IMG/VR virus record: IMGVR_UViG_3300037042_006682
Span: 64,001-128,000 of that record
Source of the DNA: a virus
DNA: 64,000 bases
Direction: 5' to 3' (one strand)
Positions within the stretch are counted from its first letter, which is position 1. The number at the start of each line of letters is the position of its first letter. The notes below the pieces were generated by a model. The model was not told the DNA's origin and ran no database searches. It saw only the letters and a list, made by a program, of their open reading frames with translations. Made by a program: the position numbers and the translations under genes. Shown here in pieces: positions 6,629-57,569 of the stretch.

Positions 6629-6648
6629 CTGCGCACGCGCGTGCGCAG
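6629..6648. promoter_or_regulatory. 20-bp RY palindrome CTGCGCACGCGCGTGCGCAG
   Basis: perfect palindrome 8 nt upstream of the tmRNA 5' end; member of a recurring family. Confidence 0.6.
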
Positions 6649-6650
6649 CC

Positions 6651-6720
6651 AAAAAAGCGCGGGGCCCGCGCCATGGAGGCCCAGCGGTGAAGGATCCGCC
6701 GGCCCCCTCGGGCCCCGCAC
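6651..6720 (-). terminator. intrinsic terminator-like stem plus U6 after the SSB gene
   Basis: GTGCGGGGCCCG...CGGGCCCCGCGC followed by TTTTTT. Confidence 0.55.
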
Positions 6721-6729
6721 AAACACCGC

Positions 6730-7488
6730 CTAGTAGCTCGCGCCCTTGGGCTCATCCCAGGGCTCTTTCCGCTTCGTCGAGGACCGCGCTGCCAGCCGCT
6801 GGAGCTGGTCGAACGTGGGGATCGGGAACTCCTTGTAGTAGTCGTATGGCCCCAGCTCCTTGAGGTGGTCCGGGTTGGCCCCGAGTTCGAGGAGGTAGCG
6901 CTTCACGTCCTGCAGCGCGATGCGCTCCACGAACTGGTGGTCCGAGCCCACGGTCTCGCTCAGCGAGCCCTCGCGGCTCACGTCCCACACGGTCCCCGCG
7001 AGGTCCCCGCCGTTGGCGATGGCCCGCTTGCGGAGGCGCGTCAGCACGCCGGGCTTGTCCTCCGACCCCCGCTTGGCCCCGTAGAGCTTGCGCATGAACT
7101 GGTAGCTCTTGCTGGGGTCCTTGACGCCCTTGTAGGCCGACAAGAGGGCCTTGCCGTTCTCGTACACGACCATGCCCAGGTCGATCACCGTGAACCAGCC
7201 GAAGAAGAGCGGCCAGTTCTTGATCTCGCACAGGGGGCACCCCCGCCCGCCCGCGTTGTTGGGCAGCGCGTTCTTCTCCAGGCAGAGGTAGAGGTCGTGC
7301 TCGTTGTTGATCTTCCAGGTGTCGTGGAAGTACGCGGGGAACGGCATCCCGTCGAGGAAGAGGACCCGCCGCGTCTCCCCGTCCTTCATGTAGAACTTGC
7401 GAAGGCCGAGGTCGCTAGGGTTCTTGTCCTTGCTGTAGTCCTCGGTGCTCTCCCAGCCCGCTTGGGCCCATCCCGTCTGCTGTGTCAT
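6730..7488 (-). CDS. single-stranded DNA-binding protein (gp32-like)
   Basis: RRVLFL...H...C...CPLC Zn site, aromatic-rich; adjacent to primase/helicase; AAGGCGAG upstream. Confidence 0.6.
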   Translation of the reverse strand: MTQQTGWAQAGWESTEDYSKDKNPSDLGLRKFYMKDGETRRVLFLDGMPFPAYFHDTWKINNEHDLYLCLEKNALPNNAGGRGCPLCEIKNWPLFFGWFTVIDLGMVVYENGKALLSAYKGVKDPSKSYQFMRKLYGAKRGSEDKPGVLTRLRKRAIANGGDLAGTVWDVSREGSLSETVGSDHQFVERIALQDVKRYLLELGANPDHLKELGPYDYYKEFPIPTFDQLQRLAARSSTKRKEPWDEPKGASY

Positions 7489-7560
7489 GGTGTCTCGCCT
7501 TTCCTCGTGTTGCGCTCAGTCAACTGAGTGGGGATCCGATCACAACATGTGATCGCCCCC

Positions 7561-7589
7561 GTCCTACCGCATCCCTTATGGTTTGTCAA
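7561..7589 (-). promoter_or_regulatory. sigma70-like promoter TTGACA-N17-TAGGAC
   Basis: GTTGACAAAC family; upstream of SSB. Confidence 0.55.
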
Positions 7590-8737
7590 CGCCCATCCTC
7601 GCCCACGGGGAGGCCCCACGCGCGCGCCTCCTCCCGCGTCGCCGTGCCGGGGTCCCGGCCCTCCGGCAGCACCACGGGGACCACGCGCGTCCCCGTGCCC
7701 TGGAAGCGCCCCACGACCTCCGCGTTCATGCGCTGCCCCGCGAGGTCCCCGTCCCCGCACGCGTAGAGGGGCTGATCCCCCGCGAGCTGCGCCGCGAGGG
7801 CGAGCTGCGCCTCCGTGATGGCCGCCCCGAGGCACGCCATCGGCGCCCGCACCCCCACCTCGGCCAGCGCGATGGCGTCCGTCGGGCCCTCCACGAGCAC
7901 CACGGACTCCCCCGCCTGATGGAGGTGCGCCCCGTAGAGGAGCTGGCCCTTGGGCATGCCGGCCGTGTGGTAGTACTTCGTGTACCACGCCCCGCACTGC
8001 GGGCACTTGTGCGCCCGCTTGCCCTCGGCGTCCACCAGCGTGCGCCCACAGCGGTAGCACCACTCCCGATCCCAGTAGAGCCGCGCCGTGAACCCCGCCA
8101 GCCGCCCATCGGGCCAACGCACGGGGAACACGAGGCGCCGCCGCCGCTCGTCGTGCCCGAGGCCCCAGCGCCGATAGGTCGCCTCCGAGATCCCGCGCTC
8201 GCTGGCATAGGCCGGCATGGATGCCGCAGCAAAGGCCTCCGCCTCGGCCTCGGGCGGGGGCACATAAGGGCGGGCCTCGCGTGGGGGCGCGGCCTCCCGC
8301 CCATCGAGCCCGAGCTGCCGCCGGGGCATCACCCCCACGTCAATTACGCGCGCCATGCCCTTTAGAGGGCCCCCAGGGTTGTAATCAAGCACGCGCGGGG
8401 GCGGCGCCATCGGCGGGCTCAGATCCTGCGCCTCGTTGAGCGCCGCCAGGTAGTAGCGCCCCCGCCGCACGCCCAGCTCCCAGACCAGCCCCACGAGCGA
8501 TCCGTGCGCCCCGCAGGACAGACAACGATAGGCCGCCCCCTCGCTGTCGACGAAGACCGCGCACGAGGGGTGCTCATCGCGCCCCCCACGATGGTGCCAC
8601 TCCGCCAGGGGGCACGCGAGGTCAATTTTGTCCCCCCGCACCCGCTGCTCCTGAAGCCCCAACGCGTGCAGCACCGCCAGCGCCCGGCGATGACTCCACG
8701 TGCCCCAGTGCCGCCTGGGCAACGCATGATCGTCCAT
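7586..8737 (-). CDS. DNA primase (Zn-binding domain + TOPRIM)
   Basis: CP..H...D..PS...YRCLSCG; VLVEGPTDA; CGDGDLAG; extra CxxC...CxxC ribbon. Confidence 0.9.
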   Translation of the reverse strand: MDDHALPRRHWGTWSHRRALAVLHALGLQEQRVRGDKIDLACPLAEWHHRGGRDEHPSCAVFVDSEGAAYRCLSCGAHGSLVGLVWELGVRRGRYYLAALNEAQDLSPPMAPPPRVLDYNPGGPLKGMARVIDVGVMPRRQLGLDGREAAPPREARPYVPPPEAEAEAFAAASMPAYASERGISEATYRRWGLGHDERRRRLVFPVRWPDGRLAGFTARLYWDREWCYRCGRTLVDAEGKRAHKCPQCGAWYTKYYHTAGMPKGQLLYGAHLHQAGESVVLVEGPTDAIALAEVGVRAPMACLGAAITEAQLALAAQLAGDQPLYACGDGDLAGQRMNAEVVGRFQGTGTRVVPVVLPEGRDPGTATREEARAWGLPVGEDGR

Positions 8738-8744
8738 GGGGCCC

Positions 8745-8960
8745 CTAGTTCAGCGGCACACTGGTATCGTTGCACGCGTCGATCACGAAATCCCGGATCT
8801 CCTCCAGCACGGATCCCTCTGCCTCCGTGGTCTCGCCCTTGAGCCGCCGGCGCAAGTGCGCCAGCAACTCATCAATGACGGCACGCAAGGCATCCCCGTG
8901 CAACGCATTGTCCAACGCCTGCCGGTCCTCCGGCAACGCAAACCCAATGGTGACGCGCAT
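8745..8960 (-). CDS. hypothetical protein
   Basis: GGAGG RBS; fills the gap between helicase and primase. Confidence 0.7.
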   Translation of the reverse strand: MRVTIGFALPEDRQALDNALHGDALRAVIDELLAHLRRRLKGETTEAEGSVLEEIRDFVIDACNDTSVPLN

Positions 8961-8969
8961 CTTGCCTCC

Positions 8970-10274
8970 CTAGAATGGTAAATCGAGGTCGTCCTGCACG
9001 GACGCCGCGGGCAGCGCCGCAACCGGCCCAGGCTTGAAGCCCTCGTCGTTGTAATCAACCTTGCCCGCCCGCGTAATCTCGGTGAAGTTACAGGACGTGA
9101 AATCCCAATTGATCTCCACGGGCCCCTCGCTGTAACCGCGGCGAAACTTCAACGGCACATACCGCATGCGCCGGTCCAACTTCATGTCCGCGTCCTGCTC
9201 CATCGCGAACACCGCGTGGGCGTCCATGCCCACCTGGTCGGAGAAGGCGATCGTCCCGAGGCGCGTGCCGCCGCCCAGCTTCGCGCTGACCTCCTGATTG
9301 CGGTTCTGCTGGCTGAACGCCACAAGCGCGAACTGGTGCCGCTTGGCCATATTGAGCGACCACTCCAGCACACGCTCCGTGCGCTCGAAACGATTGCCCG
9401 GCACCTTGAGGTTGTACAGCGTGTCCAGCAGCACTAACTCGGGGTGAACCGCCCGGATGCGCGTCTCAATGCTCCGCGGCGAGAGATCGTCCTCCTGATC
9501 CATGATCCAGATGCCGTTCACCCCCTCGAGGTCGACGACTACATGCTTGAGGCGCTGCAACTCGAACTCGGTCAGGGTACCCCGTATAAGGCCCGTCTGA
9601 CTCACATGTGCATGCACCGCAAAAAAGCGCTCCGCCACCTCCAGGCGGCTCATCTCCGGCGAGATGATCAGCACCCGGCGCCCCGCCTCTTTCCACGCGT
9701 GCTGCGCAATAAGCACCAAACTAATCGACTTTCCGAGTCCGGGTCGCCCCACGAACATCGTCAACGTCCCCGGCCACATGCCCTGGGTCATGACCGTCAT
9801 GCTCGGCCACGGATAGGGCACCCCCACATACCCCTGGAGCATGCGCTCGTAGGCCGCCACCACCGCGGGCCCCGCCGCAAACAGCGTCTTGGGCGGCGCC
9901 TGCTCCTGCACCGCGCTGCTCTCCACGAGCGCCTGAAGGTTGGTCAGAGCGCCGCTGGGGTCGTTGCCCCGCATGGCCCCCATCGCGTTCTCCAGGCCCT
10001 CGCGCAACTGACGGAAGAGCTTGCGGCTCCGCACCTCTGCCAGCACGTAGCCAGGATCCGTACCGGGATCCTCGGGCGTGACCCCACAGAGGTCGACCAC
10101 AGCCGTAGCCCCCGGCACCCCCCCATAGTCGCGCACGTGATCCGCAATAAACCCGAAGGCCCGCCGCGCCTCGGGCAGATCACAATCCATCGGCCCGATG
10201 CCCGCCCCCACGATCCGGTCATAGTGGTCGCGCGAGACCAAGAGGGCCCACAGCAAGTTGCGATCGAGATCCAT
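8970..10274 (-). CDS. dnaB: replicative DnaB-like helicase
   Basis: GRPGLGKS Walker A, SPEM, LLDTL, SQQNR, SDQVGMDAH motifs. Confidence 0.9.
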   Translation of the reverse strand: MDLDRNLLWALLVSRDHYDRIVGAGIGPMDCDLPEARRAFGFIADHVRDYGGVPGATAVVDLCGVTPEDPGTDPGYVLAEVRSRKLFRQLREGLENAMGAMRGNDPSGALTNLQALVESSAVQEQAPPKTLFAAGPAVVAAYERMLQGYVGVPYPWPSMTVMTQGMWPGTLTMFVGRPGLGKSISLVLIAQHAWKEAGRRVLIISPEMSRLEVAERFFAVHAHVSQTGLIRGTLTEFELQRLKHVVVDLEGVNGIWIMDQEDDLSPRSIETRIRAVHPELVLLDTLYNLKVPGNRFERTERVLEWSLNMAKRHQFALVAFSQQNRNQEVSAKLGGGTRLGTIAFSDQVGMDAHAVFAMEQDADMKLDRRMRYVPLKFRRGYSEGPVEINWDFTSCNFTEITRAGKVDYNDEGFKPGPVAALPAASVQDDLDLPF

Positions 10275-13200: not shown

Positions 13201-13616
13201 AGCGGCACCAGGCGCGCCCACAGGCCGGGGCACACGCGGTCCACGGCCCGCGGCGGCACGCTCTCCGCGCCCAGCCACGCGGGGGCCCGCAGCTCCCGCG
13301 CATCCCACGCCCAGCCATCGATCCGCAGCACGCGCCGGCGCACCACGTTGCGCGAGATCCGGTGCAGGGAAGCCACGCCGTCCGCGCACGCCACGCTGGC
13401 CTTCAGGCGCTCCTGCCAGGGCATCCCAAACCGCCCCGGCGCGATCTCGACGGCGATCCCCGGCGCGACGAGCCCCCGCCGCACCGCGCGGTCCTCGGCG
13501 AGGACCATCGCCCCCGTCGCCAGGCCCATGGCGCGCAGCACGTCGCCGTCAAGCGCCGCAAAGGCCCCGCGCCGCGCCACCGCCGCCTGGGGCCGCCTGG
13601 CCAACGCGTGCATCAC
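13197..13616 (-). CDS. hypothetical protein
   Basis: tight overlaps with both neighbours. Confidence 0.55.
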   Translation of the reverse strand: MMHALARRPQAAVARRGAFAALDGDVLRAMGLATGAMVLAEDRAVRRGLVAPGIAVEIAPGRFGMPWQERLKASVACADGVASLHRISRNVVRRRVLRIDGWAWDARELRAPAWLGAESVPPRAVDRVCPGLWARLVPL

Positions 13617-13978
13617 GCCCCGCGCCTCGCCACCCCGCCCGCGCTGCGGCGGCTCTTGTTCTCACTCTCCGTGATGTAATCGAGGTCCATGTGGACCCCC
13701 GCCTTGCCCTGGAAGGCCGCCACAAACGACCGCAGCGAGCAGATGAGGTGCGCGTTGCGCCCCACCACCTGCCCCACGTCATCGGGGTGCGTGTGCAGCT
13801 CCGCGATGAGCCGGCTCGCGCCGGGCACCACGTCCACGACCACCCGCTCGGGGTGGTTGACAATGGTCCTCACGACCACCTCGATCAGCCCCCGCAGCTC
13901 CTCGATCACGCCCTGCGGGATGCGTGCCCGCCGGTCCTCGGCCTGCTGTTCCGCCTGCTGTCCTTGCATCTCTGCCAC
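13613..13978 (-). CDS. KhpA/YlqC-like single KH-domain RNA-binding protein
   Basis: LIEVVVRTIVNHPERVVV...ELHTHPDDVGQVVGRNAHLICSLR. Confidence 0.8.
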   Translation of the reverse strand: MAEMQGQQAEQQAEDRRARIPQGVIEELRGLIEVVVRTIVNHPERVVVDVVPGASRLIAELHTHPDDVGQVVGRNAHLICSLRSFVAAFQGKAGVHMDLDYITESENKSRRSAGGVARRGA

Positions 13979-15259: not shown

Positions 15260-15949
15260 TCATCCCTTTGCCAACTCAGCGCGCATCGCCGCCAACTCGG
15301 CTGCCGCCTCCTCCTCAGCCAGAGCCTCCACCGCCCCCACGGCTTCAGAAGGCACCTCGGGAACCACCTCGGGCGCGGGCAGCCCCAAGGCATCCGCCGC
15401 GCTCGGCGTGAGCCCCCCCTCGGGGCGGGCCGCGGCCTCCGCCGCCAGCTCCTCCGGCGTGAGCCGGTGCACCACGAGGTTCCCCTCGGCATCGCGCTCG
15501 TCGGGCCGCACCCGCACGTTCTGCGGGACGAAGCCCAGTGGGAACTTCACCCCCCGCGGGAAGACCCAGAGGTGGCGCTCCGTGAGGCCCTCCATCACGC
15601 GGTCCGCCGCCGGATACAGCTCGATCGCCTCGGTGTCCTCGCCCAACAGCTCGGCCTTCGCGCGCTGCGCCTCGTCCCACGTGAGGTCCAAGTGGTCCTT
15701 CGTGCCCACCATGGCCAGGTGCGTAAGCATGAGGGGCTCCCCGTTGGGATCCTTGAACATCACCGACGGCAGGGAGTGCGCGAGCACCATGCAGCGATCG
15801 TTGCGCCACACGCGCTCCACGAGCACCCCGAGGTTCTCCCGCGCCACCGCGGGGTCCAGCTCCTCCCACGCGCCCCAGACCTCGCGCGTGAGGGCCTGCC
15901 CGTTCGCCCCCACGAGCGTCAACTTGCGATTAACCGTCCTGCGTCCCAT
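15260..15949 (-). CDS. conserved phage protein (DUF7694-like)
   Basis: TWDEAQRAKAELLGEDTEAIELYP...RHLW pattern; acidic tail. Confidence 0.6.
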   Translation of the reverse strand: MGRRTVNRKLTLVGANGQALTREVWGAWEELDPAVARENLGVLVERVWRNDRCMVLAHSLPSVMFKDPNGEPLMLTHLAMVGTKDHLDLTWDEAQRAKAELLGEDTEAIELYPAADRVMEGLTERHLWVFPRGVKFPLGFVPQNVRVRPDERDAEGNLVVHRLTPEELAAEAAARPEGGLTPSAADALGLPAPEVVPEVPSEAVGAVEALAEEEAAAELAAMRAELAKG

Positions 15950-16352
15950 TGCTCTCAGCTTTCCCGGCCCGCTGGCCGCTGGCCATCACCGCCGCGATCC
16001 ACTGCGGATCGCACAGCTCATCCACCTCGATCGTCTGCATCCGGCCATCATCTAGCGCCAACTCGGCGGCCACCGCCGCCGCCGCCCGATCAGCATCGTA
16101 CTGCCGCGCGATCACGCGCAGCGCCGCCTGGTAGTGCCCCAGCAGCGCCCGTGCGATCTGCTCCACCCCGACCATGCGCTCCCGCGCGTACCGCAGGTTG
16201 TGGATGATCTCGTAGAGCCCCCGGATGTCGGGCTGGTCGAGCCCCAAGAGCCGCGCCTGCGCGAGGCTCAGGCACTCCGCGATCTCGCTCTCGCGCGTCG
16301 CGCGGTACCCTTCTGGCGTCTGCCGCATGGCGTCCGCCTGCGTGTCAGTCAT
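15930..16352 (-). CDS. hypothetical protein
   Basis: GGAGG RBS; promoter and palindrome upstream. Confidence 0.7.
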   Translation of the reverse strand: MTDTQADAMRQTPEGYRATRESEIAECLSLAQARLLGLDQPDIRGLYEIIHNLRYARERMVGVEQIARALLGHYQAALRVIARQYDADRAAAAVAAELALDDGRMQTIEVDELCDPQWIAAVMASGQRAGKAESNGTQDG

Positions 16353-16365
16353 GGAGGACCTCCGT

Positions 16366-16383
16366 TGCGCATGCGCATGCGCA
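16366..16383. promoter_or_regulatory. 18-bp RY palindrome TGCGCATGCGCATGCGCA
   Basis: between TTGACAAAC (-35 at 16431-16436) and the RBS. Confidence 0.6.
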
Positions 16384-16445
16384 GCTCAGAGATTAGGGGC
16401 GCCGTCGTTATTCCATGGCCGCCGGTGGTTTGTCAACCGGAAAGA

Positions 16446-17036
16446 TCACCCCGCGTCAAGAGCAAACGGAGCCCGGCGATCAACGGTCCATCGCGCCCAC
16501 GCCTGGGTGGTCTCCTCGGCCGCCGGATCGCGATCGTGATGCCAGCAGTGGTAGATCCCGCGGTACCGCTTGCCGCGCCGGGGATCCGCCTGCGGGCGGT
16601 GGCAGCCCGACACCTCGCACGTGGGCCGCGCCAGGTAGTGATCCAGGCAGATCGGCCCCACATCCGTGAGGCGCACCTCGACGTCCGCCTCGCAGTCGTC
16701 GCACTGGCAGAGGATGTCGGTCCCCTCGCTGCGCACCCAGTCGATCAGCCGCCGGTCCACGCCGCGCGGGTAGCGCCCCTCGACATCATCGGCAGGCGCA
16801 ACCGGGCGCAGGGGCACGGGCGGGGCCGTCTCAAGGCCAATAGTCGTCTGCGGCACCGCGCGGAGGAGGTGCCGTAAAACCGCGATCGTCGCTGGGGGGA
16901 GGCTCGGCACTGTAGGGGGAAGGGGCTGCGGAGGGGCGGGCTTCGTTTTCGGCGTATCTGAGCCAGGGCTGGTCGAAGTCGCGATCGTTGTACATCGGCG
17001 TGGACCTCCATGCAGTGGCTTGTGAGCGGCTCCCAT
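16446..17036 (-). CDS. Pro-rich, Cys/His Zn-binding hypothetical protein
   Basis: GGAGG RBS; CDDC, CLDH, CEVSGC, CWHH. Confidence 0.55.
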   Translation of the reverse strand: MGAAHKPLHGGPRRCTTIATSTSPGSDTPKTKPAPPQPLPPTVPSLPPATIAVLRHLLRAVPQTTIGLETAPPVPLRPVAPADDVEGRYPRGVDRRLIDWVRSEGTDILCQCDDCEADVEVRLTDVGPICLDHYLARPTCEVSGCHRPQADPRRGKRYRGIYHCWHHDRDPAAEETTQAWARWTVDRRAPFALDAG

Positions 17037-17284: not shown

Positions 17285-18016
17285 TCACGGAGTACGCGGC
17301 ACAGGGGTCGGGATAATCGACGCAAAGCGCCGATTCTTGGTCAGCCCCGAACGCTCGAAGAGCTTCATGCGGTACACGGTCCCACGCTGCTTGAACGCCA
17401 TCCCCTGCCAGGCCTTGAGAGACAACGTCCCCTGCTCCGTAGGGTAAGCACACTTGCCAATCGCATAGCAGGTCAGCGTCGCCTCCAACCCCCCGCACCC
17501 CCGACGACAATCCGTCCACACAGTCAGGCCCTCGCGGATCTGATCTTCCGAAGTCACGCCCGTCCCGCCGTTCACCTGCATGAGCCCGTGATCGCGGCCG
17601 TCCTTAAAGCCCTTGATGCCCCCCTCCTGAAAACCGCTCTCCATGCGGCAGATCACCGTAGCCACCCGGTAGTCCACATCCATCTCCCGCGACACATCAA
17701 CGATGATCCGCGCCAAGACTGATGCCCGCTCAACCACGATCTTATTGGGCAGATAGTCTGGGTTCGTCGCGGCCCAACGGCGAATGTACTCTGCCACCCA
17801 CAACACGTCGCCCTCATAGGTGTTGGTCTCCTCAACCTCATCCATGGCCTCCAGGCGCTGCAGCGCGGCCTCCGTCCGCACCCGCATGCCCACGGGGTTC
17901 CCCTGTTTGTCCACGCTCCCCCCTGCCTGGCCCTTCGTCGGCGTATTCGCCCCCACGCTCCCCGCGGCCACCAACATCAACGCTACCGCACACAACACGC
18001 GCTTCAACTGGTTCAT
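17285..18016 (-). CDS. secreted lytic transglycosylase (SLT-like)
   Basis: signal peptide MNQLKRVLCAVALML...; ICRMESGF...GLMQVN; AAGGAGG RBS. Confidence 0.8.
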   Translation of the reverse strand: MNQLKRVLCAVALMLVAAGSVGANTPTKGQAGGSVDKQGNPVGMRVRTEAALQRLEAMDEVEETNTYEGDVLWVAEYIRRWAATNPDYLPNKIVVERASVLARIIVDVSREMDVDYRVATVICRMESGFQEGGIKGFKDGRDHGLMQVNGGTGVTSEDQIREGLTVWTDCRRGCGGLEATLTCYAIGKCAYPTEQGTLSLKAWQGMAFKQRGTVYRMKLFERSGLTKNRRFASIIPTPVPRTP

Positions 18017-18143
18017 CTCAACCTCCTTCTCTGTGCCCCGCACCGCCTGCTCTCATGGGGGGGCGTCAGTACAGCCGCGCACGCATATGCGCCTGCCGGG
18101 AGGACGCCCCGCGGCTCCGCCGGGGCTATGTTCGTTGGGGTCT

Positions 18144-25905: not shown

Positions 25906-26142
25906 TCAACGCGGGATCCCGATCCCGTGCGCATGCGCGTACGCCAGCGCCTTGGCGCCGATGGCCAGCACGGCGTCGAGCTGCGCCCGGCTCATGGGGT
26001 TCGTCTGCCCGCAGCAGCGCCCCAGGAGGGCCCCCTGGGCCTCCACCATGGTCCGCCGCTCCTCGGGGGTCAGGGCCCCCGCATATCCCCGCACGGCCTT
26101 GTAGACCGCGAGGGCGTCCTTCCAGCTCAGCACACGGTCCAT
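25906..26142 (-). CDS. hypothetical protein
   Basis: TGATG overlap. Confidence 0.5.
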   Translation of the reverse strand: MDRVLSWKDALAVYKAVRGYAGALTPEERRTMVEAQGALLGRCCGQTNPMSRAQLDAVLAIGAKALAYAHAHGIGIPR

Positions 26143-26360
26143 CAGGCATCCGCGCGCGCCGCAAAAAAAGCCACACGCAGGCACTCCGTCGTGCGCTCGT
26201 AGGCGCAGTCCGGGGCGTGCCCCTCGATCTGGTGGCAGGAGCACGGCGCCACCTCAGCCCAGTGCACCCGCATATAGTCAAGGAAGGCATGCGCCTCCAA
26301 CAAGACCTCTTCCTGCGCATGCGCATGCGCGGGCGAACGCATCCACTCCCAGGGCGTCAT
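26142..26360 (-). CDS. hypothetical protein (CxC...H..DC)
   Basis: ATGA overlap. Confidence 0.5.
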   Translation of the reverse strand: MTPWEWMRSPAHAHAQEEVLLEAHAFLDYMRVHWAEVAPCSCHQIEGHAPDCAYERTTECLRVAFFAARADA

Positions 26361-30384: not shown

Positions 30385-30402
30385 TGCGCACGCGCGTGCG
30401 CA
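30385..30402. promoter_or_regulatory. 18-bp RY palindrome TGCGCACGCGCGTGCGCA
   Basis: abuts the AGGAG RBS; identical to the copy before the tmRNA. Confidence 0.6.
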
Positions 30403-38723: not shown

Positions 38724-39183
38724 AGATCTCGAGAGAGATCGCGCGGCCCTGCGCGCAGGGCGAAACTCCCGTAGGGAGTTGAGCTAAGACCCGCAAGGGA
38801 TCCGGATCCGGAGATCCACGCGCTCTCCAAGGCGCGAAGACGCCCCCGATCGAACGCCCGTCGTCACGCGCGAGACAAAGGAGAATCCACGGGGTTCACG
38901 TAGATTCTTGAGGTTGCGTACGCGCGTACGCGGATTCTAGGATTCACCTTAACTATGCACATCAAACGGCTCGACATCGCTTGTGAAATCTCGCAAGGGC
39001 ACGCGAAGCATCCCATCTTGCCGCTTTGCCACTGCGTACGCAGGTTCGAGAATCTACTTTAACTATTGCGTGTAACCACCACGTAATCTCACAGCTATCG
39101 CCAAACGCGAGCGCCCACTGCGTACGCAACCTCGTGACTTTACTTGAAGGATTGATACTCAACTCCACGATTACACAAGGCAA

Positions 39184-40178: not shown

Positions 40179-40352
40179 CACGCGCCTCCTCTGCTGGATC
40201 GTCTCTGGGGTATTGTAGGCCGCCGCAGGGGCGCTATCAAGGCGACGCGCACGCGCATACGCAGGCACAACGCCACCAAAAAGAAGAGCCGCCGTGGTTG
40301 CACCCACGAGCGGCTCGAGTCGGTCCAGGACAAACACAACGACCAGGGCCTT

Positions 40353-40829
40353 TTACCCCACCGCACCGCCGCGTGTCAAGCCCTCCACAAGCGCCCGCAG
40401 GCGCTGGCTCAGCGACCGGGCCTCGCCCTTCAGCGTCCATGGCCCCTCGAACTCCGCGCGCCTCTTGCCCACGAGCTTGTAGTACTTCGCGTCCTTCGCG
40501 GCGTGGTTCCGGTCCCGCTGGTGCCTCTGGATGTACTTGCGCCCGCGCGGCGTCTGCTGGTGCGGCTTCCGCCGCTTGAAGTACGGCAGCTTGGGCCCGT
40601 GGTGCAACGCCGCGACCCCGCGCGCGATGGCGTGCGCCTTCGGGGCGTCCGAGCGCCGCGGGGGCGTCTTCTTCCGCAGCCCCCCCACGATCGCCACCAC
40701 GGCGTGCCGCGTGTAGGGGTCCGCCGCCCGCGGCTTCTGCACCTTGATCGCGGCCCCCCCATGGGGCGTCTTCCCCTCGATCAGGGCCCGCAGGCGCGCG
40801 CTGAGCCGCTCCCCGCGCGTCAGCGCCAC
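40353..40829 (-). CDS. very basic protein with LSARLRALIEG leader (putative capsid-internal DNA-binding protein)
   Basis: K/R/H-rich; leader motif at both ends. Confidence 0.6.
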   Translation of the reverse strand: MALTRGERLSARLRALIEGKTPHGGAAIKVQKPRAADPYTRHAVVAIVGGLRKKTPPRRSDAPKAHAIARGVAALHHGPKLPYFKRRKPHQQTPRGRKYIQRHQRDRNHAAKDAKYYKLVGKRRAEFEGPWTLKGEARSLSQRLRALVEGLTRGGAVG

Positions 40830-43249: not shown

Positions 43250-43275
43250 GCGCTGCGCATGCGCATGCGCAGCGC
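43250..43275. promoter_or_regulatory. 26-bp perfect palindrome GCGCTGCGCATGCGCATGCGCAGCGC
   Basis: intergenic; RY family. Confidence 0.65.
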
Positions 43276-44648
43276 TACCTTACCACCGCGCCCCCCGCCC
43301 TGTCCGCAAACTCGCGCAGGAGGGCCCCGAGGCCCCCGTCAACCCCCTCGCTCTGTGCCGCCCGCCCCAGCGCCAGCGCCTCGAAGCGCGCCCGCTGCGG
43401 GCCCGTCAGCACCACGCCGTTATAGTCCCCCAGCACATAGGCCGCGAAGGTCTCCGCGAACTCCTCCACCGCCGACTCTGCCCCGTAGGCCGTCGGCGCG
43501 GGCACATACCCCGCCTGCGGGCCCTCGCGCTCCTGGTCCGCCTTGCTGCGCGGGTCGAACCACGCCGCGAAGCGCGCCCGCGCCCCCGCCTTCATCACCT
43601 TGTACCAATAGCGATGGCCTAGCTCGTGTACTGCGATCTCCGCCACCACATCGGGCGTCCACCACCCCTTTGGGTTCAGGACAATCTCCTCGCTCGTGTT
43701 GTAATGCCCCGCAACCTTAAAGTTCACCCCAGACTTAGCCTTCTTTAACGTAAGCGCACGCGCCACAGGACGCACAAAAATCTCCCCATACCACACGCCC
43801 CCCATCCCCCGCTGTACCAGCGCCCGCTGCGCCGCTTGCAACCCTGCATGCACAGCCCGCATTACACCTATGTTCACGCTGCGCTCCCCAACGGGCGCTC
43901 CCGCAATGTCATCGGATCGTGCCAGGGCACTCAAATCCACTTGTGCACCTGGATCTGTCACGACTTTCATGCGCCCTAGACTGTACTCTAGCGGCGGGGC
44001 CTCCGCGACGACCGCGGCCGTGTTCGGCGAGACCTGCAACAGTTTAAGATAGGCGCGCAAGGCCGCCTGCACCTCGATGTCGACCGCCTTAACCGCATTG
44101 CCCTCGTTGCGCATCTCAAGCTGCCACGAGGTTAGCTCCCCCTCGTCCGTGGCCCCCGTTTGCGAGCGATTGCCCATGCGATCATTAAAGGCGCGCTTGG
44201 CCTCCGAATCTGGATATTCTACATCGAACCATTGCTGCTCCCGCCCCATCATATTTTGTAGCGCCTTATGGGCTACATCCAGATGCGGCAAAACCCCCTG
44301 CTCCGGCGCCTTTGAAAGAGCATGCCCCGCCACACGGGCTGGCATCTTTAGCACGGCATAGGCTCCCGCTTTGTAAGGGCGCCGCTCCATCGCAGTAAGG
44401 GCCGCCTTCGCAACATCCTGCGGCACCGCTATCCCAGCCGCCCGCACCAAGGCATCCTTCAGCGCCGCGATCCGAGCCTGCCCCTCGGCAAACCACGCGA
44501 GCACCTGGCCGCGATCTTTAGGGTCGCGGATCTGCGCCACCGTGGCCGCGGCCTTCACCCACTGCCCCCACCACTTGCGGACCCCCGCCAGCCACGCCTT
44601 GGTGCCCGGCTCGGGGGCCGCCTCCAGCAGGGTCAGCAGCTCACGCAC
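43275..44648 (-). CDS. leader-bearing protein with C-terminal zincin metallopeptidase (lethal-factor/MPTase-like)
   Basis: MRELLTLLEAA leader; AVHELGHRYW...YGAESAVEEFAETFAAY. Confidence 0.8.
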   Translation of the reverse strand: MRELLTLLEAAPEPGTKAWLAGVRKWWGQWVKAAATVAQIRDPKDRGQVLAWFAEGQARIAALKDALVRAAGIAVPQDVAKAALTAMERRPYKAGAYAVLKMPARVAGHALSKAPEQGVLPHLDVAHKALQNMMGREQQWFDVEYPDSEAKRAFNDRMGNRSQTGATDEGELTSWQLEMRNEGNAVKAVDIEVQAALRAYLKLLQVSPNTAAVVAEAPPLEYSLGRMKVVTDPGAQVDLSALARSDDIAGAPVGERSVNIGVMRAVHAGLQAAQRALVQRGMGGVWYGEIFVRPVARALTLKKAKSGVNFKVAGHYNTSEEIVLNPKGWWTPDVVAEIAVHELGHRYWYKVMKAGARARFAAWFDPRSKADQEREGPQAGYVPAPTAYGAESAVEEFAETFAAYVLGDYNGVVLTGPQRARFEALALGRAAQSEGVDGGLGALLREFADRAGGAVVR

Positions 44649-45036
44649 GGCGCACCTTCGCAGCCAGCGTACCGAGGGCGACCCCCCAGTCCGTCGCCGC
44701 GCTCGCCGCGCCCCGCAACCGCTGGTCCGCCGCCCGCACCGCGGCATCCTTCATCTGGTCCCCCGGCCAGAACAGCCCCATGCGGCCCAGCTCATAGCTC
44801 GTGGCTAGGGACCACACCTTCGCATCGTGCTTCTTCTTGACCAGGAGCACCTCGCGGTCAAAGCCCTCGACCCGCGCGTAGGCCCCCCAGTAGGAGCGCG
44901 CGGTCCCCGGCCGATCGCGCCCCATGATCCAGCCCTCCCACGTGATCGTCACGGGGCGCTTCGCCCCCGCCACCACCACGCGGACCGCGCCCGTGCCCTC
45001 GACCAGCGCCCGTAGGCGTGCGCTCAAGCAGGTCAT
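44641..45036 (-). CDS. putative internal head protein (LSARLRALVEG)
   Basis: GAGGAGG RBS; shared leader. Confidence 0.7.
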   Translation of the reverse strand: MTCLSARLRALVEGTGAVRVVVAGAKRPVTITWEGWIMGRDRPGTARSYWGAYARVEGFDREVLLVKKKHDAKVWSLATSYELGRMGLFWPGDQMKDAAVRAADQRLRGAASAATDWGVALGTLAAKVRRA

Positions 45037-48631: not shown

Positions 48632-48649
48632 CGCGCATGCGCATGCGCG
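48632..48649. promoter_or_regulatory. 18-bp RY palindrome CGCGCATGCGCATGCGCG
   Basis: intergenic, upstream of the 48605 start. Confidence 0.6.
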
Positions 48650-49435: not shown

Positions 49436-49632
49436 GTCTACCCTCCGGCAAGCGCGCGCCCCCTCTCGTCTGCTCGCTGATCGACTCTACCGACCCGCCC
49501 GCCCCCTGCCAAGAAATCCCCACGCCCCGCTCGCGCTTTACCCCGCCGCGAGCCACGCGAGCACCGCCAGGACGAGCCCCGCCACGGCCAGCCCGATGAG
49601 CGCCGCGAGGGCCACGTCGCGCCCGCCCGGCC

Positions 49633-51993: not shown

Positions 51994-52013
51994 GCGCTGC
52001 GCATGCGCAGCGC
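51994..52013. promoter_or_regulatory. 20-bp palindrome GCGCTGCGCATGCGCAGCGC
   Basis: intergenic; shortened RY family member. Confidence 0.55.
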
Positions 52014-52017
52014 CCGC

Positions 52018-52533: not shown

Positions 52534-54972
52534 CTAGCGCGTGATCGTGAACGTGAAGCGCACCTCGCCGTTCGCCACCGCCGCCGTTGCCCTCGCCTGG
52601 AGCGTAACCGCCCCCGCCCCGGCGAGCAAGGAAGTCAGGTCCACCGCGCCGCCGCCCGGCGCCACGCGCCACACCAGGTCGTCGTAGCCCGTGCGCACGT
52701 CGTCCAGGCCCCACGGGGTGTCCCCGTCCACGTCCACCCAGATCGACTGCTCCTCGCCGATCTCGTTGAGGTCGCCCCGCTGCTCCACCGTCAGGAGCAC
52801 CTGCGTGGCCCCCGCGAGGTCCTCCACGTCGAAGGCGTGCGCCACCGTGGCCCCCGCCTCGACCGCCAACAGCACGTGCTGGCTCGTCAGCACGAGGGCC
52901 CCCGTCACCGGCAGCACGTGCCCGTCCATCGGCAGCACGTCCGCGGGCCACCCCGGCGCATCGAAGGTCTCCGTGAACGGCAGCACCGTCACGAGGGTCT
53001 CCTGCAGCGCGCCCACCGCGAGGCCCGGCACCCCCATCCCGATCGCCGTCGTGTAGACCAGCGCGTACTCGCTCACCCGCACGTGGATCGGCACCAGCGT
53101 CGCCTCGATCTTCGCGATGAGGCGCCGGACCGCCGCGTCCAGCGGGAGCCCAAACCCGAAATAGGTGTCCGCCCCCCAGGGCCCGCCCTGCGGCGTGATC
53201 TCCACCCGGATGCGGTTGCTCCGGCAGTACCCGCAATCCACCAGCAGCTCCGGCCAGTAGCGCACCGCCACGTCCGCCCCCAACGCCGGCGTGGGCGCCG
53301 CGGGGTCCTGCCCCACCACGACGTCCCAGTGCCACCGCAGGGGGTCCAGCGGGTCGACCCCCGTCCCCACCTCCGCATCGATCCACCACACGGCATCCCC
53401 CAGCGCCGGCGGCACGCCCCCCGCCCGGTCGTACACCGAGAGCCCGAAGACCCCCTTGCGCACCCCCCGGAAGTCCCCCAGGGCCTCCTTGAGGATCGAC
53501 ACCGTAACCACGTGCCCCCCCATCAGGTTGTAGCCCGCGGCCTCCGCCGCCGTGAGGTCCCGCACCGCCACCACGCGCGCGGGGTCCCGCTCCGGGTGGG
53601 CATAGCCCTGCGCCACGTCCAGCGCGAAGGCGAGCCCCACGGAGAGCCCCGCCGGGGAGAAGTCCTCGTACAGGAAGCAATCGTCGATCAGCGTCTTCCA
53701 GCGATCCGCCTCCACGGCGTCCCGCCAGTCGTAGTACCGCACGTCCGCGTTGATGTCGTCGAACCGCACGGCCCGCGGCTCGATCGTCGTGTACCACTTG
53801 TCCCCCACGTGATGCACCGCCGGCGCCGGCAGGAGCCCCGCGAACCCCGCGTCGCCCAGTAGGTGCAGGGGCCGCGCCGCCACCGCGAAGCCGCTCACCG
53901 CCCCGCGGATCCGGTAGCTCTCCGCCGTGGCCTTCAGCCCGAAGAACTTGTGCGCGTGCGCGATCGTCGCGCGCTGCACGCTCTCCGGGTCGTTCGCATC
54001 GTTCTCAAACCCAAAGTCCCGCGCCAGCACGTCCAGCAGGCTCGCGGGCCGCGCCGCCACGTAGTAGCCCGCCACCCGCCAGTCCGCCGTGATCGGCGTG
54101 GTCCCCCACGGCAGGTCCCAGGTCCCCGTCCAATCGGGGCTCGCGAGCGCGCGCTCGTAGTCCACGGTCCCCCGCGCCTCCCCGAGGTCCGCCTCGCCCG
54201 TGCCGGGGTCCACGAAGTACAGCACGCCATAGCCATCGTAGGGGTCGTTCGGCACGTCCACCAGCGCCACGCGGTCCACCCACCAGGGGCTGCTGTACCA
54301 CAGCACGAGCCCCGCCGCGGCCACCGTCAGGGGCCCCGACGTGTCCATGGGCCGCAGGCGCCAGGGCGCCCCCGGCAGGGCCACCGGCGGCGTCTGCGTG
54401 CCGTCCCCAGCCCCCACCGCCACGCCGTACTGCGTGGCCGGCCACAGCCCCAGGGGCACCCCCGCCACCCAGACCTCGTTCGCCTCGGACTGCGCGGGGG
54501 CCGCCGCGTCGAAGAGGCGCGTCCGCACGTTCACCACGCGGTAGCGCGCGCCCCCCCACTCTACCCACCACTGCGGGGCCACCCGGCTGATGGCCGCATA
54601 GGGCGCCCACGCCACGCCGAAGGCCTCGTCCCCGTAGGGGAAGGCGCTCGCCAGCGCGGGCTCCCGCAGCACCACCACGGGGCCATGCGTCGCGTCCACC
54701 ACCCACGTCGCGCTCTCAAAGTACAGCCACTCCTCGGTCCCGAGCCGCCCCCGCACCTGGAAGGGATCCCGCTGCGCCGGCAGCGCCGCGATCTGGTCGC
54801 GCACCGCCTCCAGCTCGTCCGCCCACGTCCCCAGCAAGCGCTGCAGGACGTCCCCCTGGCCCGCGTCCTCCGCCTGCCAGAGCTGCGGCACGTTGCCCCA
54901 CAGCACGCGCCGCGCCCAGCTCCCCTGGCCGAAGCGCCCGCTACCAAATGGCTCGTTTCCAAAGGTCGGCAA
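52534..54972 (-). CDS. baseplate wedge protein (P2 gpI/T4 gp7-like)
   Basis: LLDVLARDFGF...QRATIAHAHKFFGLKAT; ...LVPIHV. Confidence 0.7.
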   Translation of the reverse strand: MPTFGNEPFGSGRFGQGSWARRVLWGNVPQLWQAEDAGQGDVLQRLLGTWADELEAVRDQIAALPAQRDPFQVRGRLGTEEWLYFESATWVVDATHGPVVVLREPALASAFPYGDEAFGVAWAPYAAISRVAPQWWVEWGGARYRVVNVRTRLFDAAAPAQSEANEVWVAGVPLGLWPATQYGVAVGAGDGTQTPPVALPGAPWRLRPMDTSGPLTVAAAGLVLWYSSPWWVDRVALVDVPNDPYDGYGVLYFVDPGTGEADLGEARGTVDYERALASPDWTGTWDLPWGTTPITADWRVAGYYVAARPASLLDVLARDFGFENDANDPESVQRATIAHAHKFFGLKATAESYRIRGAVSGFAVAARPLHLLGDAGFAGLLPAPAVHHVGDKWYTTIEPRAVRFDDINADVRYYDWRDAVEADRWKTLIDDCFLYEDFSPAGLSVGLAFALDVAQGYAHPERDPARVVAVRDLTAAEAAGYNLMGGHVVTVSILKEALGDFRGVRKGVFGLSVYDRAGGVPPALGDAVWWIDAEVGTGVDPLDPLRWHWDVVVGQDPAAPTPALGADVAVRYWPELLVDCGYCRSNRIRVEITPQGGPWGADTYFGFGLPLDAAVRRLIAKIEATLVPIHVRVSEYALVYTTAIGMGVPGLAVGALQETLVTVLPFTETFDAPGWPADVLPMDGHVLPVTGALVLTSQHVLLAVEAGATVAHAFDVEDLAGATQVLLTVEQRGDLNEIGEEQSIWVDVDGDTPWGLDDVRTGYDDLVWRVAPGGGAVDLTSLLAGAGAVTLQARATAAVANGEVRFTFTITR

Positions 54973-54980
54973 CGCCTACC

Positions 54981-55376
54981 TCACTGGGGGTGCGCCTGCA
55001 GCCACGCCGCGTGCGCCTTGGCAAAGGTCTCCGCCAGCGGCACCTCCACCGGCGCCCCCGAGGGCCACGCCGTCGCGCCCGCCACCATCTCTGCTGGAAT
55101 CTGATCCGCCGTCACCCCCTTGGCAAAGCGCCCCGCCCCCACGAGCCACTGCATCACAGCCTTCGCCGCCCGCAATCGCTCACACGCCTCCTCGGGATAC
55201 CCCGCAGGAAGCTCGCCATACACCATAATATCCGCCCGCCGCTTCTCACAGGCAGGGCAGAGGGGCGTCGCCACGACCCCGATGCCCACCGTCATGTCCG
55301 CCGCTGCATACACCGTCGGCGCCCCGCACATGCACACGATCTCCACACCGTCAACTAGCAGCCGCTTGATCGACAT
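54981..55376 (-). CDS. hypothetical protein (CxC...CPAC)
   Basis: AGGAGG RBS. Confidence 0.6.
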   Translation of the reverse strand: MSIKRLLVDGVEIVCMCGAPTVYAAADMTVGIGVVATPLCPACEKRRADIMVYGELPAGYPEEACERLRAAKAVMQWLVGAGRFAKGVTADQIPAEMVAGATAWPSGAPVEVPLAETFAKAHAAWLQAHPQ

Positions 55377-55385
55377 CGCATCCTC

Positions 55386-57530
55386 CTACACGTAGGTCAC
55401 TACGGCACATCCATGCCAATACGCAGACTCATAAACATCGAGGGTGTCCGTTTCTACAGTGGCCAATGCCCCAACGCCATCCCCCGGTATCCCTGTTCCC
55501 CCAACTACCGTAGGCATAGCAGCGATGCGTATCTGCACCGTCCTCTCAAAGGTAATCGAAGCAACAAAACCGCGATAGGTCCGATGGATCTCCGAAAAGG
55601 CCACACATGGTTGCGACAAGGCAGAAGGGTTGTAAAAACCAAACCCCAATGGCACGCACTCCACGCTGCCCCCGCCCACCACGATCGGCGAGAGATGGCC
55701 TGCGAGCACCGAGTCCATCCACGAGATCGCAGTGTCCCAGCCTAGCAGCGCCCACCCCGTCGCATACCCCGACGACAAGCGACTCTTGTCGTACATCTGG
55801 AATCCGCCCAGCGCCGTGATCTCGAACATCTTGGCGTCAAAGTCGGTATCGTCCGGCCGCCACTTGCTCGTTGCCTGGTTCCAGTAGGCGTTCGTCGTGA
55901 CCATGATGGCGCCCGCCCCGCCAAAGTAGATGCGCGACTTGATGGACGAGGTGCCCCCGCTCTCCCAGAGGAGCCCCAACGCATCCTGCCCCCCCACCCC
56001 TGGCTCGTACGCGCTGGATAAGTAGGTGGTGTCGTTGCTCAGCGTCACCTGCCCGCCCGCCAGCGTCACGCCGCTGTCGAGCGTGAGGAGCCCCACCACG
56101 TTGGCGATCAGCGCCGTGATGTTGAAGATCCCCCCGCCGATGTCGAACCCGCTGGCCCCGCCCACGTTCCCCACGCGCGTGTACGCGCTCCAGTTCGCCA
56201 GGTTGTTCCAGGCGAGCCCCCCGCTGAAGGCCCCGTGCTTCGCGAGCAGCATGGGCCCCATCTGGTTGTCGGAGCTGAGCCGCAGCATCGTCACCGAGGT
56301 CTGCGGCGCGACCGGCGCGCGGTGGAAGTTCCCCGCATTGAGGTACCCGCCCACGATCGCCGCGAAGCCCAGGGGCGAGCCCCAGTACAGCGTGATCGTC
56401 TGCCCCGTCACCAGCGAGTCATCCGTGATGCCGTGCGACCGCCAGATCTGGACCGCCCCGCTCGGCGCCGTCTCGGGGTCGATCTGCGGCACGCGGCCGT
56501 TGATCGCCCCCGTCAGGATCGCGATGGCCTCGGAGACGTTCTTGCTCGTGATGCTGGTGGGGTCCCCCGCGACGTCCCGCGTCGGGATGTCCTCGGCGTG
56601 CGGGAAAACGTCGAACTCCTCCAGGAAGCGGTCGTCCGTGACGAGGTCCCGCACCGTGGCCCGCGTCCAGTACCACGCGGTCCCCGCCGGGGGCGCCGTG
56701 TCGCTCGTCTTCGTGAGGTCCAGCTTGATCCAGGGGTTCGTGACGAACCCCTCGCTGTCCGCCGTCGCCAGCGTCGTGGCCCCGCTGTCCGCATACAGCG
56801 ACGCCACCGTGATGCGCCCGTGATCGTCCCCCACGTAGGGCCCCTGGAACCGGAAGCTCCCATCCCCCGCCCCCAACTGGACATAGCTCGATTTGATCGT
56901 CCACGCGCCGCCCCCCAAGGGGCAGTACACCTTGCCCGTGATCTGGAACACGGGGGGCGCCCCCGTGGGGGCCGCGAAGTTCACGTAGGCGCGCTTCACC
57001 GTCACGCGGTCCAACGACGCCGTCATGCGGTAGCAGCTCGCCGGCGTCGCCGACGTGCTGCGGTCGATGTAGCTGTCCAAGATCGTCGTCGCCCCCATCG
57101 GGATCGTGATCTTGGCCAGGCGCACCGCGCTCCCGCTCGTGCTGGGCGCCGTGGTGTCCACGTAGAAGGCCCCGCTCGTGGGGGCCCCCGTCGCGTAGGT
57201 GCAGCTCAGGTACACGTAGTACGTCTTGGTGCTCGGCATCGTGCCGCCGCCCCCGGTGAACTGCCCACTAAGGTTCACCGCGACGTCCGTCGCGTAGCGC
57301 ACCGCGAGGGCCGCCCCGCCGGTCTTCTCCACCCACAGGTAGAAACTATCCTGCTCCCCGTTGGGCGTGATCTTGACCGTCTGGGTGCCCTGCGCCATGA
57401 CGTAGCCCCCCCGGTAGATGCCAGGGTCCAGCACCGCAAGCGCCTTGTTGATCCCCTCGGAGACATAGGTCTCGCGCCACCGCACCTTCATCTGCGCCTC
57501 GGGGATCACGACCGTCTGTACTACCGCCAT
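55386..57530 (-). CDS. tail fibre / baseplate-associated structural protein
   Basis: G/T/S-rich; PGIYRG N-terminus; VRLAKITIP; tail module context. Confidence 0.7.
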   Translation of the reverse strand: MAVVQTVVIPEAQMKVRWRETYVSEGINKALAVLDPGIYRGGYVMAQGTQTVKITPNGEQDSFYLWVEKTGGAALAVRYATDVAVNLSGQFTGGGGTMPSTKTYYVYLSCTYATGAPTSGAFYVDTTAPSTSGSAVRLAKITIPMGATTILDSYIDRSTSATPASCYRMTASLDRVTVKRAYVNFAAPTGAPPVFQITGKVYCPLGGGAWTIKSSYVQLGAGDGSFRFQGPYVGDDHGRITVASLYADSGATTLATADSEGFVTNPWIKLDLTKTSDTAPPAGTAWYWTRATVRDLVTDDRFLEEFDVFPHAEDIPTRDVAGDPTSITSKNVSEAIAILTGAINGRVPQIDPETAPSGAVQIWRSHGITDDSLVTGQTITLYWGSPLGFAAIVGGYLNAGNFHRAPVAPQTSVTMLRLSSDNQMGPMLLAKHGAFSGGLAWNNLANWSAYTRVGNVGGASGFDIGGGIFNITALIANVVGLLTLDSGVTLAGGQVTLSNDTTYLSSAYEPGVGGQDALGLLWESGGTSSIKSRIYFGGAGAIMVTTNAYWNQATSKWRPDDTDFDAKMFEITALGGFQMYDKSRLSSGYATGWALLGWDTAISWMDSVLAGHLSPIVVGGGSVECVPLGFGFYNPSALSQPCVAFSEIHRTYRGFVASITFERTVQIRIAAMPTVVGGTGIPGDGVGALATVETDTLDVYESAYWHGCAVVTYV

Positions 57531-57549
57531 GGCTTACCTACCTCGCTCG

Positions 57550-57569
57550 CTGCGTACGCGCGTACGCAG
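57550..57569. promoter_or_regulatory. 20-bp RY palindrome CTGCGTACGCGCGTACGCAG
   Basis: intergenic, upstream of the RBS for 57530. Confidence 0.6.

Follow-up and report, generated by a model that had tools for sequence, protein, structure and literature searches.

The DNA analysed here, called the window below, is a stretch of 64,000 nucleotides comprising bases 64,001-128,000 of one IMG/VR virus record of 161,208 bp (genome label G000), and the element in question is an 18-bp palindrome of consensus TGCGYAYGCGCRTRCGCA that recurs along this genome, mostly in the short gaps between genes. The palindrome family is real, selected, lineage-specific and evenly spaced. Our tentative reading, which we prefer to its rivals while holding it with less than even confidence, is that each copy is an operator-like site in double-stranded DNA for a dimeric, lineage-specific DNA-binding protein, and that these sites would punctuate the transcription of a genome that is effectively one-directional, its real genes lying almost wholly on the minus strand.

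Distribution, symmetry and conservation of the palindrome

Exact matches to the consensus number five in the window against an expectation of zero, dinucleotide shuffles giving none, and when up to three mismatches are allowed there are 14 matches against 1.39 expected. Across the 161-kb genome the family comprises 13 exact copies and 27 distinct copies at two or fewer mismatches, besides short forms that share one hexamer unit with the 18-mer. The preliminary description of this DNA had placed the copies mostly between genes and shortly upstream of start codons, and the genome-wide check for intergenic enrichment that it proposed bears this out, in that 18 of the 27 copies are non-coding while the non-coding fraction of the genome, generously set, is 15.6% (binomial P=3e-9). 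In the typical layout on the coding strand a stop codon is followed after 2-19 nt (median 6 nt) by the motif, which is followed after 0-10 nt by a Shine-Dalgarno site and then a start codon, with the motif ending 12-26 nt ahead of the start of a minus-strand gene in most copies. Distances between copies range from 1.3 to 13.9 kb with a mean of 6.1 kb, and the coefficient of variation of these gaps, 0.58, is smaller than that obtained for random positions (0.95, P=0.0012) or for random gene junctions (1.02, P=3.5e-4). Four copies lie deep within genes, always in the single tolerable frame, which reads L-R-[M/T]-R-[M/V]-R, and the relatives keep these copies while the encoded residues change. 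The 600 nt ahead of the starts of the capsid, portal and sheath genes contain no copy, though copies do occur inside or beside head genes, and PHROGs returned no annotation for 10 genes downstream of the motif, so that no regulon logic can be read from them.

Recognizable transcription signals are sparse along the same genome. On the sense strand of the 161 kb, candidates for sigma-70-like promoters number about 12 and intrinsic terminators that convince about five, and the T4 late promoter TATAAATA has no exact match and seven one-mismatch matches on that strand, none of them near the motif. A scarcity of promoters had already been remarked upon for the structural region, and it is confirmed for 38.5-58.4 kb of the window, where one good sigma-70-like candidate (40212-40240, beside a copy of the motif) and one weak candidate (49484-49512) were found.

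Comparison of the 27 copies indicates that 14 of the 18 positions are essentially fixed and that positions 5, 7, 12 and 14 toggle. The changes at these four positions are transitions only, a Y or an R always being kept, and because all variation is of this kind the purine/pyrimidine alternation is preserved over the full 18 bp. Outside the 18-mer conservation is limited to G at -2, C at -1 and a purine at +19, and there is therefore no directional flank. The claim that variants of the motif co-vary in such a way as to keep the dyad is correct for the inner pairs 5:14 (permutation P = 0.011) and 7:12 (P = 0.0015), but the outer pair 1:18 shows no covariation, and two of the 13 exact genome copies are imperfect, the other 11 being perfect palindromes. 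For a set of 53 distinct copies, drawn from the relatives as well as the phage, covariation scores 0.261 compared with 0.209 +/- 0.014 for shuffled sets, none of 500 shuffles reaching 0.261, and slid controls collapse in the same test, the covariation figures being inflated by kinship among the 53 copies. At the variable pairs roughly one cell in four is G·T or C·A, and among all non-Watson-Crick cells there are 27 G·U and 17 C·A with no overall strand bias. In eukaryotes the NRF1 homodimer likewise has the hexamer pair TGCGCATGCGCA as its site (PMC10810270), a likeness that would indicate only that such sequence suits a symmetric dimer.

The genome that carries the family has a G+C content of 67.5% and an estimated completeness of about 88%. 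Pfam matches outside the window include a set of head and tail genes of T4 type (the portal gp20, the capsid protein gp23, a gp21-type prohead protease and the tail sheath), and those inside it include replication genes (DnaB-like helicase, primase, SNF2 helicase and other helicases), several of which contain inteins. With its T4-like virion genes, and with no match to the tyrosine integrase family Phage_integrase in the genome, the phage looks to be an uncultured, divergent T4-like myovirus that is lytic by appearance. Megablast found no relative among cultured phages and all tblastn matches were below 35% identity, and two protein scans of viral contigs yielded no further contigs covering the window. 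Comparisons were made with four IMG/VR contigs of 80-98% nucleotide identity to the phage (G001-G004) and with relatives taken from metagenome and protein look-ups (L181-L184 and L203-L208), including the metagenome relatives L181 and L184, at about 56% amino-acid identity, and the more distant L183, which has a G+C content of 57%.

The four close contigs carry the motif at a similar density, and 13 of 13 copies in their covered regions are retained. In L181 and L184, all five copies in the covered stretch are retained in place, often with the type switched; at window position 43254, for example, (TGCGCA)x3 is replaced by TGCGTACGCGCGTACGCA in the relatives, and orthologs show many double changes from C-G to U-A. 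Identity over 28 orthologous pairs is 96.7% at the fixed positions, 82.7% in the 30-nt flanks and 69.6% at the variable positions; the core is under purifying selection and the four positions are hypervariable. L183 has no copy of the motif at three or fewer mismatches and in its stead has another palindrome, CGAACCYRGGTTCG, which occurs six times and is likewise arranged as stop codon, palindrome, Shine-Dalgarno site and start codon, with some copies in non-coding control regions. This second palindrome has no purine/pyrimidine alternation and forms a weak RNA hairpin (core -4.5 kcal/mol), and its form is that of a classic 6-2-6 operator. Gene order is rearranged between L183 and the phage and individual junctions are not orthologous, so it is the layout alone that the two have in common. 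A comparison with 185,579 bacterial and archaeal genomes revealed, among the matches listed, no host repeat family, only scattered single matches in many high-GC taxa without homology to the phage. The earlier suggestion of a phage-specific, cis-acting code therefore stands on the enrichment at junctions, the conservation in position, the lack of a comparable bacterial family among those matches, and the alternative palindrome of L183. No synteny breakpoint with G001-G004 coincides with a copy of the motif, and for this reason a role in module exchange was rejected.

Individual copies and their surroundings

All five exact copies in the window lie where the preliminary description had put them, at 6630, 16366, 30385, 43254 and 57551. 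The exact copy at 6630..6647, TGCGCACGCGCGTGCGCA, lies between an intrinsic terminator and the 5' end of a transfer-messenger RNA (tmRNA) gene. That at 16366..16383, (TGCGCA)x3, is 13 nt ahead of the ATG of a 140-aa gene, and that at 30385..30402 begins 4 nt past a stop codon and is directly followed by AGGAG and then ATG. The copy at 43254 is part of a 26-bp perfect palindrome, GCGC-(TGCGCA)x3-GCGC, at 43250..43275, 3 nt past a stop codon and 22 nt before an ATG, the ortholog of which in L181 and L184 is TGCGTACGCGCGTACGCA. The same sequence is the exact copy at 57551..57568, 3 nt past a stop codon and 20 nt before the ATG of a 714-aa gene. In L183 (L183:9670-12274) the 490-aa protein encoded at window 43275-44747 has two tandem paralogs, and about 10 genes of L183 open with a common MRxLIxRLEE leader that is visible as a direct DNA repeat family.

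Of the near-copies named earlier, four hold up well and one does not. The sequence at 48632..48649, CGCGCATGCGCATGCGCG, is a perfect palindrome with two mismatches to the consensus, located 6 nt past a stop codon and 26 nt before the ATG of a 534-aa gene, and single mismatches are found in the copies at 26314..26331 (overlapped by a shifted match at 26320), 38915..38932 and 40246..40263. The degenerate copy at 18076..18093, about 60 nt ahead of the start of the gene at 17285-18016, is only a weak member with four mismatches. One further copy with a single mismatch, at 25928..25945 within the last codons of a gene, had been overlooked. The short form reported near 51998 is a 20-bp perfect palindrome, GCGC-(TGCGCA)x2-GCGC, at 51994..52013, and its ortholog in L181 and L184 is a full 18-mer.

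The copies at 38915 and 40246 lie in a region with additional features. The former comes right behind a TAGAAT hexamer in non-coding DNA, and both the copy and its flank are identical in L184; a 12-bp relative of the motif, CTGCGTACGCAG, which had likewise been overlooked, is located nearby at 39032..39043 and follows a 25-nt unit whose twin comes before the 38915 copy. This unit, ATAGTTAARGTRRATYCTMGAAY, occurs twice in window 38934-39068, about 110 nt apart and each time followed by a palindrome of the family, and is found nowhere else in the genome; the non-coding stretch of about 680 bp that holds it could be an origin or a control region. The copy at 40246 is 14 nt past a strong terminator and is followed after 5 nt by the -35 hexamer of the sigma-70-like promoter TTGATA-N17-TACAAT (40212..40240, minus strand, 10 of 12 matches), and this arrangement is kept in L184. 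Just upstream of this copy and promoter, window 40270-40380 on the minus strand contains TTGACA-N18-TAAAAG followed by a short RNA of about 60 nt that ends in a strong terminator (-25 kcal/mol and T5), and a like combination of promoter, short RNA and T8 terminator is present at 39.3-39.4 kb of the genome.

At the tmRNA, the earlier statement that the motif fills the space between a terminator-like stem and the mature 5' end is accurate. The intrinsic terminator of the upstream 252-aa gene (GC stem and T6; 6651..6672, minus strand) ends 3 nt before the motif, measured from its T-run, and the 5' end of the phage tmRNA gene (6272..6620, minus strand; tag AKQQEYQAAA) is 9 nt past it. Three loci were compared for this cassette: window 6272-6651, L203:2552-2715 and L207:2297-2434. 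The upstream gene and its terminator are shared by L203, which is 96% identical, and after them come an ordinary promoter and a gene for an HsdM-type N6 methyltransferase, with both the motif and the tmRNA missing. In L207, which is 68% identical, the 42 nt from the terminator to the start of an intein-bearing helicase are taken up by a palindrome of another sequence, GCGTCTGCGCAGACGC. Judging by these loci, the tmRNA cassette is cargo that varies. At the tmRNA, a sigma-70 promoter in which the motif would form the spacer (TTGGCT-N18-GAGAAT) was considered and rejected as a general reading, because its start site would fall within the tmRNA. A third type of palindrome, CGCGCAATYRATTGCGCG, is present in L204-L206 in two copies only, neither of them at a junction, and no claim is made for it.

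Candidate partner proteins were sought by family matches in the genome. There was no match to sigma-70 region 2, to the ParB_N domain, to RAYT (Y1_Tnp) or to type II topoisomerase subunits, and no CI-like repressor was present among the helix-turn-helix (HTH) matches; nor was there a match to the T7-like RNA polymerase family PF00940, although control genomes gave none either and several large open reading frames have no family. These gene absences are read from a record that is about 88% complete and are hence not proof of absence. The region 4 and HTH signals that were obtained belong to two HNH homing endonucleases that are free-standing and contain multiple HTH modules, at G000 15818-16891 and 4053-4955 (loci L185), and the gene at 4053-4955 corresponds to an 840-bp insertion that G003 and G004 do not contain. 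A KhpA/KhpB-type KH-domain protein is encoded at window 13613-13978 on the minus strand (Pfam 36 bits), and an IS605 OrfB/TnpB gene adjoins it in the relatives' contigs.

Operator, hairpin and other readings

From the repeated sequence and its placement, spacing and conservation we infer that a protein binds the motif, that this protein is of phage origin, and that its binding has an effect on transcription. The motif would be a double-stranded dyad of 18 bp, or of 20-26 bp in some copies, read by a two-fold symmetric protein of the phage lineage. With sites about every 6 kb at the junctions of a one-way genome that has few sigma-70-type promoters and few terminators, binding of the protein would control the passage or the restart of host RNA polymerase at these junctions, and the outcome would be a global punctuation, like that of stoperators or KorB sites, with no particular gene set being regulated. 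The fixed stem positions suggest that the sequence itself is constrained and not pairing alone, because a purely structural hairpin would let its pairs drift, and a degeneracy by transitions only is common for operators and favours a DNA site. The shared layout with a different palindrome in L183 is what might be expected from a protein and a site that co-evolve. Roles in RNA or translation do not apply to the copy 5 nt before a -35 hexamer (40246), to the copy before the untranslated tmRNA or to the four copies deep in genes. Both the indifference of the hairpin to its native flanks, described below, and the lack of an overall strand bias in mismatches count for a DNA site, and the even spacing fits genome-wide punctuation. 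The enrichment at junctions and the precedent of the Cluster O palindromes, described below, also speak for the operator. Among the mechanisms offered in the preliminary description an operator for a dimeric regulator fits best and an RNA-processing stem remains a live rival, while a promoter fares poorly and a Z-DNA or cruciform switch is weakened.

Several points weigh against the operator. No protein that binds the motif has been identified in the genome, and the only regulator-like candidate, a MerR-type HTH protein of 183 aa (window 1442-1993, minus strand; HTH in the C-terminal half, Pfam MerR_1, 24.3 bits), which is encoded just downstream of the intein-bearing helicase and in the same position in relatives, has nothing that ties it to the motif. 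Covariation between half-sites is not predicted for a dimer that reads them independently, and under the operator reading it needs templated quasi-palindrome correction or copy-to-copy conversion. Template-switch correction or conversion could give covariation without selection, and would presumably also account for the variable positions changing faster than the flanks. Most copies have no promoter nearby and no promoter hexamers in or beside them. Since the phage looks lytic, the silencing required in lysogeny, which is the classic reason for dispersed repressor sites, would not apply. Finally, mismatches at the mid-stem pairs on the sense strand are G·U in about 9-10 cases and C·A in two, hinting at a constraint on RNA.

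This last point belongs to the main rival, in which the motif acts as an RNA hairpin between the cistrons of long polycistronic transcripts, a possibility that we consider serious yet on balance unlikely. The hairpin would have a 7-bp stem (up to 11 bp) and a GCGC loop, may be read by a specific RNA-binding protein, and could serve as a processing site or exonuclease barrier, as a means of uncoupling or coupling the translation of neighbours, or as a stall site for terminating ribosomes, given that its stem begins 2-13 nt past the stop codon. Copies do lie at transcribed junctions with the Shine-Dalgarno site directly after them, and the even spacing would suit the cutting of long transcripts into units. 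Folded as RNA, the 18-mer is predicted to reach -6.7 to -11 kcal/mol and the 26-mer -20.5, and the loop bases GCGC are fixed; yet the native flanks do no better than random ones, the hairpin probability being 0.39 for the native sense strand, compared with 0.35 when the context is random and 0.43 in antisense, and near 0 in about half the copies, so that this comparison gives no support for selection on the RNA fold. The inner pairs co-vary, the C-G to U-A double changes among orthologs are many, and the mid-stem mismatches are mostly sense-strand G·U, but the stem does not co-vary freely, its sequence being fixed, and the excess of G·U, which is 8 to 2 over C·A on the sense strand at pair 5:14, is not seen at pairs 7:12 and 1:18, where C·A is as common as G·U. 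Stable hairpins reportedly occur between cistrons in T4, and T7 has RNase III sites. RNase III needs a longer stem than the one formed here. In the 15 nt that follow the motif there are 0-5 T, mostly 0-2, which falls short of the U-tract that defines an intrinsic terminator, and the true terminators of this genome carry runs of T5-T9; at the gathering threshold the sole Rfam match in the window is the tmRNA, with none at the motif. One copy is located between a terminator and a promoter, four are deep in coding regions, and the palindrome of L183 folds weakly. The phage does encode a KhpA-like KH-domain protein and a tmRNA, and REP hairpins within 15 nt of the stop codon in E. coli are said to lower upstream expression via trans-translation. 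A bolder reading, which we regard as a long shot, is a genome-wide, evenly spaced punctuation by nucleic-acid hairpins in which the copies would be restart signals for an unrecognised phage factor or polymerase, as would suit a genome almost devoid of ordinary promoters, or RNA stems 2-13 nt past stop codons that stall ribosomes and feed the phage tmRNA; if the ribosome-stall version were true, protein ratios would be set along very long polycistronic messages.

The remaining readings are each improbable. A phage-specific promoter, of the hairpin type or for an unrecognised phage factor, that restarts transcription at junctions would account for the scarcity of sigma-70 and TATAAATA promoters, and the position of copies just ahead of Shine-Dalgarno sites is like that of T7-type promoters; between the terminator and the tmRNA, moreover, the motif occupies the position at which L203 has an ordinary promoter, and L207 has its different palindrome between the terminator and the helicase start. 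The element is symmetric, however, so that nothing in it sets a direction, the genome gave no match to a T7-like RNA polymerase or to sigma region 2, with region 4 signals confined to the homing endonucleases, and the capsid, portal and sheath starts have no copy in the 600 nt upstream whereas some copies lie deep in genes, all of which makes a promoter hard to credit. We give about as little credence to a Z-DNA or cruciform element that would serve as a supercoil sink or as a gyrase or topoisomerase site and relieve the torsion of one-way transcription. Its attractions are the strict purine/pyrimidine alternation over 18 bp, the even spacing of about 6 kb, the perfect palindromes of up to 26 bp and the lack of an overall strand bias in mismatches, but a specific sequence is conserved and not the alternation alone, the phage has no type II topoisomerase match, loopless 18-bp palindromes rarely extrude, and the reading loses its main support because the L183 palindrome has the same layout without the alternation. 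The least probable reading is that of a functionless mini-palindrome, selfish or mutationally maintained, that spreads by copying and owes its symmetry to template-switch correction. The lower identity of the variable positions relative to the flanks (69.6% and 82.7%), the wholesale type switching between orthologs and the length variant by a hexamer unit at 51994 are what it would lead one to expect, but it is difficult to reconcile with the retention of 13 of 13 copies in close relatives and five of five in L181 and L184, with fixed positions that are better conserved than the flanks, with in-gene copies that are kept despite amino-acid changes, or with the lack of a match to a RAYT-type transposase and of synteny breakpoints at the copies.

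Related repeats and significance

The closest known counterpart is a 17-bp palindrome of Cluster O mycobacteriophages, TGTTCGGNNNCCGAACA, which is present in more than 30 copies per genome, is of undetermined function, and for which dimeric DNA-binding proteins were proposed by the authors (Cresawn et al. 2015, PMC4351075). Many of its copies are in short intergenic gaps, some near the 5' ends of genes, and about a third are in genes (PMC4351075). Both repeats are phage-specific dyads with fixed arms, tens of copies, a mixture of intergenic and genic sites and no counterpart in hosts, which for the present motif refers on the bacterial side to the matches listed, and neither phage is obviously temperate. 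They differ in that the sequences are unrelated, with no match to TGTTCGGNNNCCGAACA in this genome, and in that the motif described here has no central spacer, has four fast-flipping, co-varying positions, is tied to junctions of stop codon and Shine-Dalgarno site and is evenly spaced; the repeat resides here in a divergent T4-like myovirus and in Cluster O in a Mycobacterium siphovirus.

Other systems share less with the motif. The stoperators of Cluster A phages (L5 gp71, Bxb1 gp69) are summarised in the Cluster O account as dozens of short intergenic sites that are thought to act on elongating RNA polymerase (PMC4351075). As with the motif, one short site is present in many copies in short intergenic gaps genome-wide, but stoperators are asymmetric 13-mers that are oriented with transcription and to which a temperate phage's immunity repressor binds, whereas the motif is symmetric and its genome has no integrase or repressor match. 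The KorB operators (OB) of the IncP plasmid RK2 are palindromes present in about 12 copies, some a few bp before a -35 hexamer and others remote from promoters, and serve a global regulator. The copy at 40246, a few bp upstream of a -35, is KorB-like in this respect, but KorB is of the ParB family, for which ParB_N found no match in this genome, and the site sequences are unrelated. In T4-type phages, the promoter/stem-loop cassettes known as PeSL elements are made up of an early sigma-70 promoter joined to the stem-loop of a terminator, form clusters within hyperplastic regions and are markers of indel breakpoints (Arbiol et al. 2010, PMC2839356; Comeau et al. 2014, PMC4122927). These too are short repeated intergenic motifs of T4-like phages, and the tmRNA junction carries different cargo in L203 (the methyltransferase), but the motif is without promoter hexamers or a U-tract, is evenly spread and is not at synteny breakpoints. 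Repetitive extragenic palindromes and bacterial interspersed mosaic elements (REP/BIME) are intergenic palindromes within operons, often 15 nt or less from the stop codon, and are longer, imperfect, host-wide and linked to RAYT. Unlike REP, the motif has no RAYT match in its genome and no bacterial family among the matches listed. The Start-Associated Sequences (SAS) of Cluster K mycobacteriophages, as cited in the Cluster O paper, are repeats tied to translation starts (PMC4351075). They are asymmetric and include the ribosome-binding site, whereas the motif is symmetric and ends just before that site. Stoperators, SAS, REP, KorB sites and PeSL elements therefore each share one or two features with the motif, and each fails at least one defining test here; the motif is one of a known class of phage repeats that still lacks an explanation. 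To our knowledge, no dispersed phage-specific palindrome outside the repressor systems of temperate phages has an established function.

The present family offers several handles for the study of such repeats, namely a lytic-looking, one-way T4-like phage with few promoters and terminators, a spacing of about 6 kb, and a sister lineage with a different palindrome in a like layout. If the copies are roadblocks formed by a protein, or points of restart, the partition of such a genome into transcription units would be explained by them, and if they are RNA stems, they would constitute a new, sequence-defined class of intercistronic punctuation; in either case, the motif is a practical marker for this uncultured phage clade.

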